From Eledone cirrhosa (lineage: Eukaryota): DNA of 64,000 bases. Below are positions 15,088 to 60,090 of this stretch, piece by piece. Each line of letters begins with the position of its first letter. The first letter of the stretch is position 1. The translations under genes and the position numbers were made by a program. The DNA lies in contig CAXHJY010000928.1 of the NCBI GenBank assembly GCA_964016885.1, positions 310,001-374,000 on the forward strand, written 5' to 3'. Below the pieces are notes generated by a model. The model had not been told where the DNA came from. It searched no databases and saw only the letters and a program-made list of their open reading frames with translations.

Positions 15088-15523
15088 TACGATATTAAAC
15101 AAATGGAAATTACATTTATAAAACCATATTTATTTCATTATATATATTTCAGGGATATCATATTAAAAATATGGTATGCCCTCTTCAGACAAAATACAAT
15201 ATATAAACAGTTTTATAAATAAATTTGACATACCTTAAACTTTACAACTTCCATTTAAAAAGTTGTTTTAAATGGAAGTTGTAAAGTTTAAGGTATGTCA
15301 AATTTATTTATAAAACTGTTTATATATTGTATTTTGTCTGAAGAGGGCATACCATATTTTTAATATGATATCCCTGAAATATATATAATGAAATAAATAT
15401 GGTTTTATAAATGTAATTTCCATTTGTTTAATATCGTAAAATACTCCAAAACTTGTTGAGTGCTTTTATATCAGTTATAAAATATTTACTCGTAACCCAA
15501 CAATTTTAAATAAAACTTTTGCA
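15088..15523. repeat. Fold-back element: 173-bp inverted arms (15088-15260 / 15266-15438), 5-nt loop, unpaired tail
   Basis: Arms read as exact reverse complements; flanked by (TA)n. Confidence 0.95.
15330..15395 (+). ncRNA. Hammerhead ribozyme motif (mirror copy on minus strand at 15131-15196)
   Basis: UAUUUUGU-CUGAAGA-GGG..CAUAUU/AAUAUG..CCCU-GAAA-UAUAU-AUA-AUGAAAUA. Confidence 0.75.
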
Positions 15524-16410
15524 TATATATATATATATATATATATATATATATATATATATATGTGTGTATGTGTGTATATGTATATATATATATATAT
15601 GTATATATATATATATATATATATATATACATATATACACATACACACATACATACATACACATACAAATAAATACTCAATAAATATACGCATATACAGA
15701 GGCACATAAAAACAGCTCTACAGGCAGAAAATGCAGATAGGTAAGAGTTACTCACATAACCATAGTGGCCGTATTTCAGGTTGAGGAGGGGTGGGAGTAG
15801 GGTGGGAAGGAGGTATAGGGGCTAATAGGAGGAGGATGTTACACATATATATATATATATATATGTATATGTATGTGTGTATATGTATGTGTGTGTGTGT
15901 GTGTATGTGCAGATGCATATGCATGTATGTATACACCCATGAATGTATATATGTGTGTGTGTGTATATGTATATACATACACACATGCGTGCACATGCAT
16001 ATATGCACATACACATGTATGTGTATGTGTGTATGTATGTATATATGTATGTATGTGTATATATATATATATATATGTATGTTTATGTGTATATATGTAT
16101 ATGCATGTATGTGTGCGTATATGTGCGTGTACATGTGTACATGTGTGCATGTGCACACATGTACACACAGGTATACACATGTGTATCTGCTGGTGCATAC
16201 ATGTACATACATACACATGCGCATGCACGCGCCTGTGCACATGTATATATATATATATATATATATATATATGTGTGTGTGTGTATATATATATATGTGT
16301 GTGTGTGTGTGTGTGTGTATATGTGTGTATGTGTTTGTGTGGTTCTCTCTGTGTGTGTATTTATTTATTTATATATGTGTGTGTGTGTGTGTGTGTGTAT
16401 ATATATATAT

Positions 16411-16746
16411 ATCATCATCATTTCATTTTACGTCCACTTTTCCCTGCTTGCAAGGGTGGGACGGGAACTGATACTGGCTTGATTTCTACAGCTGAATGCC
16501 CTTCATAACACCAACCTCATTTACAGTGAGTGCTTTTTGGGGTGCTTTTTTGCCGTGGCACCTCCACGACCACTTTGCAGTGGAATGATATGGACCCCAG
16601 TCCCTATCATCTCATTTCTACAGCTGAGTAAACTGGAGCAATGTGAAATAAAGTGTCTTGCTCAAGGAAACAACACATCACCCGGTCTGAGAATTGAACT
16701 CACAACCTTTCGATTGCAAGGCCAATGCTCTAACCACTAAGCCATG
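16411..16746 (-). mobile_element. tRNA-derived SINE (same family as 14225)
   Basis: Reverse-complement match to 14225-14550. Confidence 0.9.
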
Positions 16747-16837
16747 TATATATATATATATATATATATGTGTGTGTGTGTGTATATGTATATATATATA
16801 TATGTGTGTGTGTATATATATATATCTATATATATAT

Positions 16838-17678
16838 AAACGTATGTATGTATGTATACGTACATACACATATGTATACAGACGTACAGTAGCACGCATA
16901 TATATATACATATATATATATATATATATATATACATACACATATACACATATGCATACAGGTACACATACATATATGCACGCATCAGTTTAGCCGACGT
17001 TTATTATAACGCCGGCCGCTTTGTTCGTTTGTTTGTCAACAAAGCGAACAACCTGAATTTATGCCATACGGTGTTAAGGCAACCACGTCACCTTTTTGTT
17101 CAACACTGACACAGGAACGATGTACTAGTTTCAAGCTTGTTAGCTATCATCAGCACCGTTTACCCATCTGCCAGATAGTTGAACGTTCGAAAGTATATAC
17201 TTTCCTTATGAAAATTAACGGCTGGCATAAATTCAGGCTGTTCGCTTTGTTGACAAACAAACGAACAAAGCGGCCGGCGTTATAATAAACGTCGGCTAAA
17301 CTGATGCGTGCATATATGTATGTGTACCTGTATGCATATGTGTATATGTGTATGTATATATATATATATATGTATATATATATGCGTGCTACTGTACGTC
17401 TGTATACATATGTGTATGTACGTATACATACATACTTACGTTTAAGTAAGTGCCATACTAAGAGTGAGAAATGAAATTTCGTTTTCATTTTTTTCAACTT
17501 ATATATATGTATATGTATATATATGTGTATATATATATATATATACATATATATATATGTATATATGTATGTGTGGGTGTATGTGGGTGCGCGCAAGTGT
17601 GTGAGTGAGTGTGTTTGTGAATGTGTCTGCTGATTTTTGGCACAGAGTTGAATAGTTTAAGAGAAATTTGAAGATAAT
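16838..17678. mobile_element. Non-coding fold-back element, copy 2 (arms ~16838-17066 / ~17223-17443)
   Basis: Near-perfect inverted arms around a ~155-bp spacer homologous to the 7146-7318 spacer. Confidence 0.85.
17116..17160 (-). ncRNA. Minimal hammerhead ribozyme with canonical core
   Basis: AACGGUG-CUGAUGA-UAGCU-AACA-AGCUU-GAAAC-UA-GUA-CAUCGUU; 7-bp stem I, palindromic ACUAGU stem III. Confidence 0.85.
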
Positions 17679-18319
17679 CTTTTGATATGCACTCAATATT
17701 TTGAATCTGTCTACAGGATTCTCTAGGCCTTTGTCACTTAGTAGAACCTTAAAGAATTTAGCTTTTAAAGAATCTCCCTTTCCTTTAAATCCATCAACCA
17801 TGACTGACCCCCACTGATCTTATAGACACCTGTTAGCTTAAGAGAAACTTAAAAATAAGGAGTGGCACCCCATCCTGAACTTGTTTATAGAATTCTTTCT
17901 GCCTTTGTTACTCTAAAAATAAACTATAGTTTTGAAGAATTAGCTTTTAATGAATTCCTTTTTCTATCAACCAATGACCTACACCCATCCCACTCCCTAC
18001 CCTCTCCTACCACTTGAAGAGACCTATAAATACCATACTTAGTTTTTGATACCCAGATTCCTGATGATTTCTAAAGAATGAAACAGTTCTAGTCCTGTAG
18101 AATCTCATCTATATACTCTGCTATGTATTGAATACCTTACTTACTGTGGTTACCTCCGATTCAACCCGGAATAACGTAGTATATATATATATATATATAT
18201 ATATATATATATATATATATATATATATGTGTGTGTATATATGTATATATATATATATATGTATATATATATATATATATATGTGTGTATATATATATAT
18301 ATATATATATATATATATA

Positions 18320-58016: not shown

Positions 58017-58341
58017 GAATCAACTGAATTTTTTGAGTTGAAATACATATGGATATGTGTCTGTGTGTATCGGACACACGTACACATAAAGAAGCTGGTG
58101 ACCTAAATGTACCTGTCATGCCTGTCTGAATTCCTAAGGGAATTTTCGTCCAGTTGCTGTCTTGACCGATTGTAGTACCAGTGGGTGAATCAATTGAGTT
58201 TTTTGAGTTGAAATACATATACATGTGTGTCTGTGTGTGTTGGACACACGTACACATAAAGAAGCTGCTGACCTAAATGTGCCTGTCATGCCTGTCTGAA
58301 TTCCTAAGAGAATTTTCGGTCAGTTGCTGACTTGACCAATT
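58017..58341 (+). repeat. 170-bp-period tandem duplication
   Basis: gaatcaa..ttgagttgaaatacatat..ttgacc occurs twice. Confidence 0.9.
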
Positions 58342-59547
58342 AACCCCACAATTACTACGTAGCGGTTCTTGCACGTGACTGCTGGACCCGGATGAAACGA
58401 AGACGAAGAATTTCCTTGTGTACCGTTTTGTACCACAGATGCGATCTCACCCTGCCTCGTTAATGTTCAATCAACACCAAAGTTATACTTTCTGGGCAAT
58501 AGAATTGAATCCAACCACCAACAACATAGCTGGATGACCGATAATCACACCAAACCGGAGTACTGTGATCCTTGTGATTTCGAGATATACAACCACTGAC
58601 ACTGTTACAAAGACCAGAAAACCATACTCCATAATATTGAACCAAGTGATTGATTTGTGCGACCAAAATAACACCACACACATATTGAACTAGGAATATT
58701 GGATCCTCCATCAATGTCTGGGTGAGCAAAAATAGATTTCTATCTGCATTGGAATTTACGAACTTGTGCATCTGCTGTGGTGTCAAAAACAAACACGCAT
58801 GACCGCACAGATAAACAATGGACTATGCCACGTGGCTTGAACCTGTAAGTGAATTGAAGGTTCTGTAACTCTGATACACAGATTATTTATTATTAAGATG
58901 TATAAACTTGACATAACTATTATCATCTTATATTCTCTCAACTAATCACATTTGATCATATTTCTCTATCCCATTTTCTCCCCCCATAATTATAATATTT
59001 TTATTTTTATTTGAAAAAATCGGTTTTTTTACATTGTGTTTTCCCCTCCAAATATTCGCTTATATTTCTTTATATATTCTCTATATATTTCTTTACATAT
59101 ATTTTTTTATCTTTATTATTTCCACTTTTATCCTCCTTTATATTTTACCTTATTCTTACTTTTATACCTTATTATAGTGTAATCTTCCCCATGCCTTATT
59201 ATACATTATTAATTATTGATTATTATTATTACTCTTTTTCCATTTCTAATTACCTCATGTACCTTCTCCTCCGTTATATATACATATATATTGTATGCCC
59301 TTTGTGTTTGTGTAGCCTCTGCACACCCTCTGCACCATACTATCGATGCCACCCCATCTATGGTTCAGCTAACCACTCGACTCCCGGGAATGAATATGAT
59401 CGCAGCTACTAAATAAGGACCCACACCCCACCCTCCCGCACCAAAATTAGACTTATCGTCCCCTACTTTTGCTCTTTACTCTCTTTACTCTTTGTTCTTG
59501 AATGTTTGGTTAGTAGAGTCCATAACACCAATCAAACCCCTTTTATA

Positions 59548-59592
59548 GCTCTGACGAATCCTACGGTTACGTAAGGAAGAAACATTGTAAGC
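59548..59592 (+). ncRNA. Hammerhead ribozyme motif
   Basis: GCU-CUGACGA-AUCCUACG-GUUA-CGUAAGGAA-GAAAC-AUU-GUA-AGC then AATAAA. Confidence 0.78.
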
Positions 59593-59667
59593 CAATAAAA
59601 ATCTTTTGATGTTGTAGACGCTCTTGTGTTCTTTATCATATATATATATATATATATATATATATAT

Positions 59668-60090
59668 ATAATATAAGATCAAAAGATGGTTAAAGGAGTT
59701 CCATGTATTTTATTATGCGCATTTCAAAAACAAAACATCATCATGCAATAATATTTGTGTTTTCATCAGATAAAACAGGAGAACATGATATGAAGGCTAA
59801 AAAACACTTGTGGATAGTGCAGTTTTAAATCAACATATATGTTGATTTAAAACTGCACTATCCACAAGTGTTTTTTAGCCTTCATATCATGTTCTCCTGT
59901 TTTATCTGATGAAAACACAAATATTATTGCATGATGATGTTTTGTTTTTGAAATGCGCATAATAAAATACATGGAACTCCTTTAACCATCTTTTGATCTT
60001 ATATTATGTATACTCCAGTCCTACAAACTGTAGAGTGCTTCTTATCCGATATCTGCATTGCTTTATTGTACTACAATAAAACTCACCTCC
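59668..60090. repeat. 340-bp spacerless palindrome (59668-60007, centre 59837/59838) plus unpaired tail
   Basis: Arms read as exact reverse complements; (TA)n on both sides. Confidence 0.95.
59898..59970 (+). ncRNA. Hammerhead motif (mirror copy on minus strand ~59705-59777)
   Basis: GUUUUAU-CUGAUGA-AAACA..UGUUUUU-GAAA-UGCGC-AUA-AUAAAAU; palindromic AUGCGCAU stem III. Confidence 0.8.

Follow-up and report, generated by a model that had tools for sequence, protein, structure and literature searches.

Fold-back elements of the window

Nine sites in the window, which is the whole 64,000-nucleotide stretch of Eledone cirrhosa DNA analysed here, had been listed in the original prediction as sharing a fold-back layout, and each of the nine indeed contains a local inverted repeat that continues into an unpaired extension. 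The elements span 287–764 nt, and each consists of a tail-less inverted copy and a tail-bearing copy placed head to head, with an unpaired tail of 56–126 nt outside one arm. As predicted, they lack ORFs: the longest ATG-started frames (25–112 aa) show no coding evidence.

7011–7510, plus strand: element 7020; arms 7013–7144 and 7320–7455 (122/136 identical), loop 175 nt; tail at about 7456–7510 and, in sense with it, a UUGAUGA hammerhead variant at 7205; no Hydra-type hairpin
15089–15522, plus strand: element 15088; arms 170/170, loop 9 nt; hammerheads in both arms (cores 15338, plus, and 15188, minus); AAUAAA; bulged hairpin 15443–15461 in the tail
16839–17497, plus strand: element 16838, of the 7020 family; arms 218/228, loop 156 nt
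18320–19083, minus strand: element 18320; arms 149/169, loop 305 nt; tail 18320–18445 with hairpin 18412–18444; sense copy with 305 extra T-rich upstream nt; tail-less arm 18914–19082 with a CCGAUGA hammerhead
21606–22140, plus strand: element 21610, old, of the 44790 family; arms 156/226 (69% alike), loop 13 nt
44789–45075, plus strand: element 44790; arms 94/95, loop 38 nt; tail about 56 nt; no hammerhead, no Hydra-type hairpin
53399–53830, plus strand: element 53405; arms 120/122, loop 72 nt, with hammerhead core 53585 in the loop; tail hairpin 53726–53749
55180–55572, plus strand: element 55177; arms 136/138, loop 6 nt; no hammerhead core; Hydra-type tail hairpin 55473–55502
59670–60093, plus strand: element 59668; arms 166/166, loop 4 nt; hammerheads in both arms (59906, plus, and 59769, minus); AAUAAA at 59961; tail 60006–60093 with hairpin 60012–60036; member of a highly repeated family in which a 5' start near 59837 recurs

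Element 18320 has its tail on the left and is therefore placed on the minus strand, and its right end adjoins the (ATC)n tail of a LINE. In 16838 the loop that bears the hammerhead (core 17153, minus strand) runs antisense to the tail, which makes the tail-less copy the long one. Element 21610 carries no hammerhead, no Hydra-type hairpin and no (TA)n flanks. Insertion between (TA)n tracts, claimed for all nine, holds for seven, which have TA or TA-rich repeats on both sides, and fails for 18320 (one side) and 21610 (neither). These flanks are a weak marker of the Hydra clade since LINEs, too, are found in TA runs of the window.

Elements 15088 and 59668 have arms that are 100% identical, and no record among the runs examined spans a whole half-element, as might be expected of assembly or long-read fold-back artefacts. 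Such an origin is nonetheless extremely improbable, given that the other seven elements have diverged arms, the asymmetric tail occupies a conserved position in all nine, opposite-strand joints occur in independent short-read data, and the same structures appear in unrelated assemblies. Equally little credence attaches to MITE-like or foldback DNA transposons that target TA and end in terminal inverted repeats. They too would be short, non-coding and TA-flanked, but the unpaired tail on one arm means that the inverted repeats are not terminal, the inner part varies in length and orientation, and the hammerhead, AAUAAA and tail hairpin are common to an RT-coding Penelope-like element (PLE) of the same window.

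A coding Hydra-clade element and its shared features

This PLE and further members of the short families, beyond the nine, are located as follows.

33707–38756, minus strand: coding Hydra-clade PLE; tail 33707–33807; pLTR with hammerhead (33892); 894-aa ORF 38216–35535; sense start 38405; inverted tail-less pLTR 38410–38756 with hammerhead 38672, plus
226–3229, minus strand: 5'-truncated Hydra PLE; ORF remnant 3228–1848; hammerhead and tail at 226–507, likely its 3' end
3230–3364, plus strand: 59668-family copy (84% alike), short and with a tail
26574–26726, plus strand: small fold-back between (TA)n, 18-nt inner arms, of the family of the hammerhead at 18061; degenerate hammerhead (minus strand); tail (plus strand)
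33421–33693, minus strand: 15088-family member; short tail-bearing copy on the minus strand with hairpin 33485–33504; partner a long tail-less copy on the plus strand with a degenerate hammerhead (core 33598); arms of only about 10 nt

The ORF at 38216–35535 contains the motifs DKT, CxCx5C, CxxC and CxH, with RWR for RWK, in a scan against the Hydra-clade diagnostics (PMC8557442), and CCHH is absent as judged by eye. It has 257 homologues. Pfam gave no RT match on this ORF and a sub-threshold GIY-YIG match at 56342–57310, and a PDB sequence search found no match, so the identity of the coding PLE rests on motifs, homologues and Atlas look-alikes. Its inverted tail-less pLTR (347 nt, 98.8% identical) is a 5'-truncated copy joined at the 5' end, as is also found in all nine fold-backs, and the layout and spacing are the same in both. 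The distance from hammerhead core to tail end is 185 nt in 15088, 188 nt in 59668 and 185 nt in both copies of the coding PLE, and that from core to tail-less end is 83–96 nt in the four copies measured. Together with the tail hairpin, this geometry supports the proposed link to PLEs and mobilisation by a PLE RT/GIY-YIG protein, and the 33707–38756 element is a candidate for the type of mobiliser. For 21610 and 44790, which have neither Hydra-type hairpin nor hammerhead, assignment to PLEs comes from layout alone; 7020 and 16838 also lack the hairpin.

A strict scan for type I hammerheads found 14 sites in the window, as opposed to 0.08 per shuffled window (100 shuffles, maximum 1). Five of the nine elements (15088, 16838, 18320, 53405 and 59668) contain a strict match, compared with none in 300 shuffles. 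With the 7020 variant these make up the six hammerhead-bearing elements originally reported. The C[UC]GANGA core is absent from both strands of 21610, 44790 and 55177. Neither a hammerhead family nor any match at gathering score is among the 150 of 307 Rfam matches listed, nearly all of which are sub-threshold microRNA models on hairpins and TA runs. The candidate ribozymes would presumably cleave, and in modelled full-length folds of 15088 and 59668 the hammerhead is predicted to be locked in a long duplex.

A bulged tail hairpin of the form NYTC-stem-T(A/T)-GARN is present in five of the nine elements and in coding PLEs. The pattern was devised after the window tails had been viewed, and it is not enriched window-wide (14 matches vs 9.4 ± 3.3). 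In other animals the hairpin lies 40–61 nt after the cleavage site of 8 of 25 hammerheads (11 loci) as against 18 of 1238 background windows, and by eye it can be recognised in three of six published Hydra consensus sequences; automatic alignment registered tail hairpins poorly. The conserved hairpin likely positions the enzyme. At one other-animal locus, a 291-nt hammerhead fold-back matches, with 97% identity across 181 nt, the 3' end of a coding PLE from a second locus, where a long tail-less ORF fragment is also joined to a short tail-bearing copy (L013, 8854–9600).

The short families of the window do not match the pLTRs of the 33707, 48282, 53293 or 59551 coding ends. No coding parent was found within the window except a possible one for the 18320 family, the related end at 226–507 (70% alike). 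The 305-nt upstream part of 18320 aligns weakly with the 3' UTR that precedes 226–507 (z 3.4, a score that the best of 100 shuffles also reached) and so is not counted as proof of this parentage. Six short element motifs were not found in the supplement of Craig et al. 2021, in which line breaks could hide matches, and so gave no link to published octopus Naiad or Hydra consensus sequences. Viral contigs contained no Hydra relatives. A 20-nt pattern searched in metagenome contigs gave two bacterial matches, taken as chance.

Junctions and the 59668 family

Turn-around points differ between 7020 and 16838, between 15088 and 33421, and between 21610 and 44790, which speaks against the palindrome as a self-propagating unit. 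The longer copy can be on either strand: relative to the tail, the loop runs in sense in 7020 and 53405 and antisense in 16838 and 33421. A recurrent fold-back point had been put forward as the mark of such a unit; one side of the junction does recur, at a fixed 5' start, and the other varies.

The 59668 family, represented by 3747 contigs in run X1, shows the same pattern. Short-read data contain five different opposite-strand joints, in four of which one partner starts at 59836–59839 and the other at 59871, 59991, 59996 or 60064. Two joints rest on single contigs and three on RAD reads with one or two start positions, and, with a search stretch beginning at 59836, any joint whose partner is longer could have escaped notice. 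In three of four runs, tail-less ends that lead into (TA)n recur at 60004–60012. Some copies, with mixed letters, extend further upstream than 59837 (256 reads in X16, 16 contigs in X1), and the 5' end is thus not absolute. Summed depth of the 5' part, pre-tail part and tail stands at 1.19:2.54:1 in X1, 1.53:4.0:1 in X5 and 0.44:0.98:1 in X4; two copies per insertion would fit X1, roughly X5 and not X4, depth not being copy number. High repetition and a recurrent 5' start make it somewhat more likely than not that the family is a short non-autonomous PLE unit.

These junctions bear on the view that each fold-back is a distinct palindromic retrozyme, transcribed whole, self-cleaving, perhaps circular, and re-inserted as a unit. 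Real hammerheads, the lack of an ORF, a highly repeated family and short families unmatched to coding pLTRs of the window are all in keeping with it. We consider it very improbable, as junctions differ in every same-family pair seen, which largely refutes it; there is only one sense hammerhead per strand, where the tandem-repeat retrozymes of animals need two; three of nine elements have no hammerhead; and in the predicted folds of 15088 and 59668 the ribozyme is locked in duplex. The suggestion of a new class of self-propagating palindromes is further weakened by the other-animal fold-back being the end of a coding PLE.

Snap-back, or self-priming, is a more serious alternative, though still an unlikely one. 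Here one cDNA, or an antisense template as has been suggested for Adineta PLEs, would fold back and copy itself, and recombination between the arms would later flip the loops. Snap-back predicts near-perfect apex palindromes, and the fully identical arms and almost absent loops of 15088 and 59668 answer to this, as does a near-identical perfect palindrome found as a loose end in one contig of a second organism (run X5). Self-priming from palindromes at inverted junctions has also been argued in the literature (PMC3846280, from the available part of that report). It would hardly give a long tail-less and a short tail-bearing copy overlapping by 10–20 nt (33421; 59836/59991; 59839/59996), the joint 59837/60064, seen with one start position only, whose short partner starts inside the tail, or the junction at 3229/3230. 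There the 59668-family copy lies head to head with the truncated coding PLE, whose likely 3' end is of the 18320 family, at a joint with no TA run; the insertion appears to join two different families, or could be two insertions and a deletion. The arms of 33421, at about 10 nt, are too short for easy recombinational flipping. Because the tail-less copy is often the longer and one junction joins two families, simple snap-back of solo pLTRs, one of the two readings first proposed, fits poorly.

Proposed insertion by priming at both ends, and known systems

We therefore favour, as the probable explanation, two separately copied PLE end fragments set head to head by priming at both ends of a break in (TA)n; the fold-backs would then probably be by-products left by Penelope insertion, and not a new palindrome that copies itself. 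The PLE RT/GIY-YIG protein would cut both strands of the (TA)n tract, and two RNAs would be copied, one from each cut end. One cDNA would start at the end of the roughly 85–125-nt tail and the other at the tail start, beside the bulged hairpin. Each would reach the RNA 5' end, about 58–78 nt upstream of the hammerhead core and likely the transcription start, or stop early. The two would then be joined at their 5' ends, with the fold-back as the region of overlap and the loop as the part of the longer copy that exceeds the shorter. The unit copied would be a monomer of roughly 260 nt (5' start, hammerhead, AAUAAA, hairpin, tail), not a palindrome. For the 59668 family we lean slightly towards a source RNA that is a short non-autonomous pLTR-only unit moved in trans; otherwise it would be the 5' leader of a coding PLE transcript.

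The elements are a variation on known PLE anatomy. Hydra-clade PLEs (Craig et al. 2021, PMC8557442) likewise target (TA)n, carry a canonical hammerhead in the pLTR, and have an inverted 5'-truncated copy at the 5' end and a tail at one end only. The coding PLE of the window has their protein diagnostics, and its tail hairpin recurs in five of the nine elements. Unlike these PLEs, the window elements are all pLTR, with no ORF, and their tails measure about 85–125 nt as opposed to 30–40 nt. The main text of that paper has no matches for hairpin, stem-loop, solo or palindrom and does not mention the bulged tail hairpin.

In Penelope of D. virilis and in Adineta Pen (PMC2377424, PMC3846280), head-to-head inverted pLTRs of variable length, junction palindromes and solo pLTRs also occur, and the pLTRs are sufficient for mobilisation in trans and have an internal promoter. 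There an ORF lies beside the inverted pLTR, which is attributed to self-priming; the fold-backs consist of two short halves, of which either may exceed the other in length, and can unite two families. Animal non-LTR retrozymes, as far as the available text describes them (Cervera and de la Pena 2020, PMC7229834; Li et al. 2026, bioRxiv 10.64898/2026.07.22.740005), resemble the elements as non-coding units of a few hundred nucleotides with type I hammerheads, related to PLE pLTRs. They are head-to-tail tandem repeats that need two hammerheads and release monomers and circles, while the fold-backs are head-to-head pairs with one sense hammerhead and a PLE tail. No retrozyme-type tandem array was seen in the window, and the 14 hammerhead matches include no same-strand tandem pair, pairs lying on opposite strands.

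A biochemical parallel to the proposed steps is provided by the Anolis element Poseidon, studied in vitro (Frangieh et al. 2024, PMC11167929). In the portion of that study available, the purified PLE cuts and extends both strands at AT-rich DNA and starts at two internal sites bounding the tail, with a start in a stem-loop; a template spanning the pLTR–ORF junction yields pLTR-only cDNA, and hammerhead cleavage is dispensable. That portion does not take up how inverted products form, and Poseidon belongs to a different clade. A literature search covering few subscription papers found no description of ORF-less head-to-head PLE units or of PLE twin priming.

Craig et al. 2021 (PMC8557442) treat the origin of the inverted pLTRs and one-sided tail of PLEs as unsolved. 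As minimal insertions, the fold-backs reduce a PLE insertion event to its two ends, and they favour two separately primed cDNAs over self-priming. A broader scheme, which we put forward tentatively and would rate as possible rather than probable, is that high-copy, SINE-like Hydra-PLE units of ~260 nt with no coding parent are inserted in head-to-head pairs by a PLE enzyme acting as a dimer, with priming at the two ends of a double-strand cut; the clade-wide bulged hairpin would serve as recognition signal, and priming of this kind would be how the inverted pLTR and one-sided tail of PLEs arise in general. The conserved tail hairpin is a possible cis signal that can be mutated in the existing in vitro assay. 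Such elements are liable to be mislabelled as MITEs or microRNA hairpins (compare the sub-threshold Rfam microRNA matches), and, if transcribed, would be ready-made double-stranded RNA. The fold-backs are of moderate mechanistic interest, as a testable clue to the mode of PLE insertion.

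Fold-back elements and their hammerheads

Self-alignment of the window after masking of the alternating microsatellite, followed by arm mapping, revealed a local inverted repeat at all nine sites of predicted fold-back elements (7020, 15088, 16838, 18320, 21610, 44790, 53405, 55177 and 59668). The arms are 95–228 nt long and 69–100% identical, the loops span 4–305 nt, and outside one arm of each element lies an unpaired extension, the tail, for a total length of 287–764 nt. The original prediction of (TA)n on both sides holds for seven of the nine (TA or a TA-rich repeat); element 18320 has one such flank and 21610 none.

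A strict type I hammerhead ribozyme (HHR) scan found 14 sites in the window versus 0.08 in shuffles, and matches in five of the nine elements versus 0 in 300 shuffles. Together with the variant core UUGAUGA of element 7020, these account for the six elements said to carry a core or variant; a core search of 21610, 44790 and 55177 found none. Among public reads, variants of the 59668 HHR convert G-U to Watson-Crick pairs at four positions of stems I and II, convert three Watson-Crick pairs to G-U and break one terminal pair, and the free core position is variable.

Elements 21610 (21606–22140) and 44790 (44789–45075) form one fold-back family with the arm-plus-tail layout that lacks both the HHR and the Hydra tail hairpin described below, and could represent an end of an HHR-less clade of Penelope-like elements (PLEs), such as Naiad. 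A further HHR-bearing PLE end (17680–18179), with its core at 18061+, a complete stem III and a near match to the tail hairpin, terminates in (TA)n and is related to a small fold-back at 26574–26726. Two spaced inverted repeats without HHR or tail, at 24743–25336 (82 nt at 85%) and 31897–32437 (26 nt at 100%), are possibly MITE-like.

Coding Hydra-clade elements

The window is repeat-rich animal DNA containing LINE fragments and several PLE remnants, among them the following features.

33707–38756, minus strand: coding PLE, in the order inverted tail-less pLTR (the PLE repeat end), sense copy, ORF, pLTR with HHR, tail
3228–1848, minus strand: Hydra ORF remnant, cut at an RT motif
3230–3364, plus strand: short 59668-family copy, joined directly to the Hydra ORF remnant

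Among named homologues of the intact 894-aa ORF, the best comes from the octopod Argonauta hians (43% identity across 53% of the query), which makes a cephalopod host plausible. The motifs found by scanning (DKT, CxCx5C, CxxC, CxH, YRDD and RWR) match the Hydra-clade diagnostics in the accessible part of Craig et al. 2021 (PMC8557442). The inverted tail-less pLTR is 347 nt long at 98.8% identity, the sense copy begins 18 nt before the tail, the tail measures 101 nt, and the whole element lies between (TA)n. This is the layout of the small elements, but with a 4.6-kb loop. An asparagine-rich stretch between RT and endonuclease in the ORF at 35535–38216 (18% N over residues 480–700) is reminiscent of N-rich inserts in Adineta Penelope families, and a splice-acceptor-like motif immediately precedes the ATG.

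The HHR and tail at 226–507, 70% alike to element 18320, appear to be the 3' end of the PLE to which the 3228–1848 remnant belongs; an 8-unit TA run lies between them and the UTR upstream, which leaves contiguity likely rather than certain. Within 48280–53382, a truncated Hydra PLE of the 33707 family abuts with its 5' end a 3'-UTR fragment of another PLE family, an inverted copy of which (52830–53382) has its own HHR (53293); this arrangement may be a template jump or a second two-family insertion. A tail-less Hydra PLE copy at 56200–59637 (ORF C-terminus 56342–57313, interrupted UTR, HHR at 59551) terminates in (TA)n directly before element 59668. TA runs are also targeted by LINEs: two near-identical 3' fragments, tail to tail around (TA)n at 45214–47598, form an 887-nt inverted repeat at 98%. 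A tandem array at 23022–24003 (unit ~48 nt) is related to a segment of a LINE 3' UTR.

Variable junctions and a shared tail module

The palindrome is not the copied unit. Elements 7020 and 16838 are 85% alike in the core and 91% in the tail, but their arm end points are unlike, and the HHR loop of one has the sense orientation of its tail, that of the other the antisense. Elements 21610 and 44790 have common outer ends but not turn-around points, and at 33421–33693, in the 15088 family, a long tail-less and a short tail-bearing copy overlap by ~10 nt. One arm of 59668 together with its tail was compared with public runs (three sets of contigs and one of RAD reads), where the family proved highly repeated, with 3747 and 414 contigs, 52 contigs from a second organism, and 4969 reads. 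Five opposite-strand joints were recovered (59836/59871, 59836/59991, 59837/60064, 59839/59996 and 59851/60000), thinly backed by single contigs or 1–2 read starts each. One partner begins ≤4 nt from the 59668 apex in four of them, which has a probability of 1.5e-6 under uniform starts over the arm, a figure qualified by a query stretch that itself started at 59836. Recurrent tail-less ends that run into (TA)n lie at 60004–60012, and some copies continue upstream of 59837. By summed depth, two overlapping copies per insertion fit run X1 and roughly X5 (the second organism), but not X4. With turn-around points differing within families and 59668 joints varying, the proposed distinct palindromic class is not borne out.

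What the copies share is a cis module. From HHR core to tail end there are 185 nt in 15088, 188 nt in 59668 and 185 nt in each of two coding copies, versus 83–96 nt from core to tail-less end (four copies measured), and most copies have an AAUAAA-like hexamer 3' of the cleavage site. Near the tail start sits a hairpin, NYTC-stem-loop-stem-T(A/T)-GARN, found in 15088, 18320, 53405, 55177, 59668, the additional member 33421 and three coding copies; the pattern search detected none in the tails of 7020, 16838, 21610 and 44790. By position, 7 of 16 tails match, with two coding tails just beyond the 30-nt limit. The inner stem pairs show three to five identities per position, pairing there being a pattern requirement. 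The pattern was built from these same sequences and is not enriched across the window (14 versus 9.4 ± 3.3), and was therefore tested in 11 other loci with Hydra-like RTs. Eight of their 25 HHRs have the hairpin 40–61 nt after the cleavage site, versus 18 of 1238 background windows; of the remaining 17, many reach TA before that position, three show a hairpin that narrowly misses the pattern, and several belong to other HHR types. Among the six Hydra consensus sequences seen in the PMC8557442 supplement, three show the hairpin by eye, one a partial form and two none near their ends.

These eleven contigs (L003–L013), which code for Hydra PLEs of animal type, come from GTDB prokaryote genomes and are likely host or animal DNA carried into prokaryote bins; the L013 HHR is identical to the published Hydra-2_Amil HHR. 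Locus L005, from another animal, contains a 291-nt fold-back between TA runs (7580–7870) and a second fold-back at 8271–8684. Each arm of the 291-nt fold-back carries an HHR, and over 181 nt it is 97% identical to the coding PLE 3' end in L013; at L013 8854–9600 a long tail-less ORF fragment is joined to a short tail-bearing copy. Such fold-backs are therefore a general product of the Hydra clade.

Proposed two-ended priming and known PLE structures

According to the accessible part of Frangieh et al. 2024 (PMC11167929), a PLE in purified form cleaves AT-rich DNA on both strands and extends both; it uses two internal start sites, one at each boundary of the tail, and does not require HHR cleavage. 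We propose that, after a cut in (TA)n, each of the two ends would prime a cDNA, one per start site, and that the two would then be joined at their 5'-truncated ends. Such priming would explain why only one side has a tail, why the loop can lie on either strand, how arms can be tiny or missing and how two families can be joined. The start lies 58–78 nt upstream of the HHR core in seven short copies and ~260–460 nt upstream in three longer ones; the former zone is likely a transcription start, by analogy with the internal promoter of the Penelope pLTR (PMC2377424, as far as accessible). Several short tail-bearing copies begin 30–39 nt downstream of the first AAUAAA base, which, speculatively, could mark a 3'-processing cut or RT stall. 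The short RNAs may represent the leaders of coding transcripts or derive from separate sources consisting of a pLTR alone; the two are not mutually exclusive because pLTRs suffice for mobilisation in trans, as stated in the available sections of PMC3846280.

In the parts of the literature available to us, known PLE anatomy includes an inverted 5'-truncated copy together with a tail on one side, within (TA)n (PMC8557442), inverted pLTRs and 3' extensions are known quirks in a curation guide (PMC8969392), and solo pLTRs and junction palindromes in Adineta were attributed to self-priming (PMC3846280). Animal retrozymes are described there as pLTR-related tandem HHR repeats (PMC7229834; Li et al. 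2026 preprint), whereas the window fold-backs are not tandem. The portion seen of a 2026 Octopus vulgaris repeat annotation (PMC13282606) reports active Penelope families and does not mention hammerheads. The literature searched, mainly open-access papers and the main texts of preprints, held no account of ORF-less head-to-head PLE units, and neither the Hydra tail hairpin nor two-ended priming by a PLE is described in it. The elements are real and are a variant of the known PLE insertion structure, not a new palindromic class. Their chief interest lies in the evidence that two cDNAs are primed separately, in the conserved tail hairpin and in the likely existence of a high-copy non-autonomous unit.
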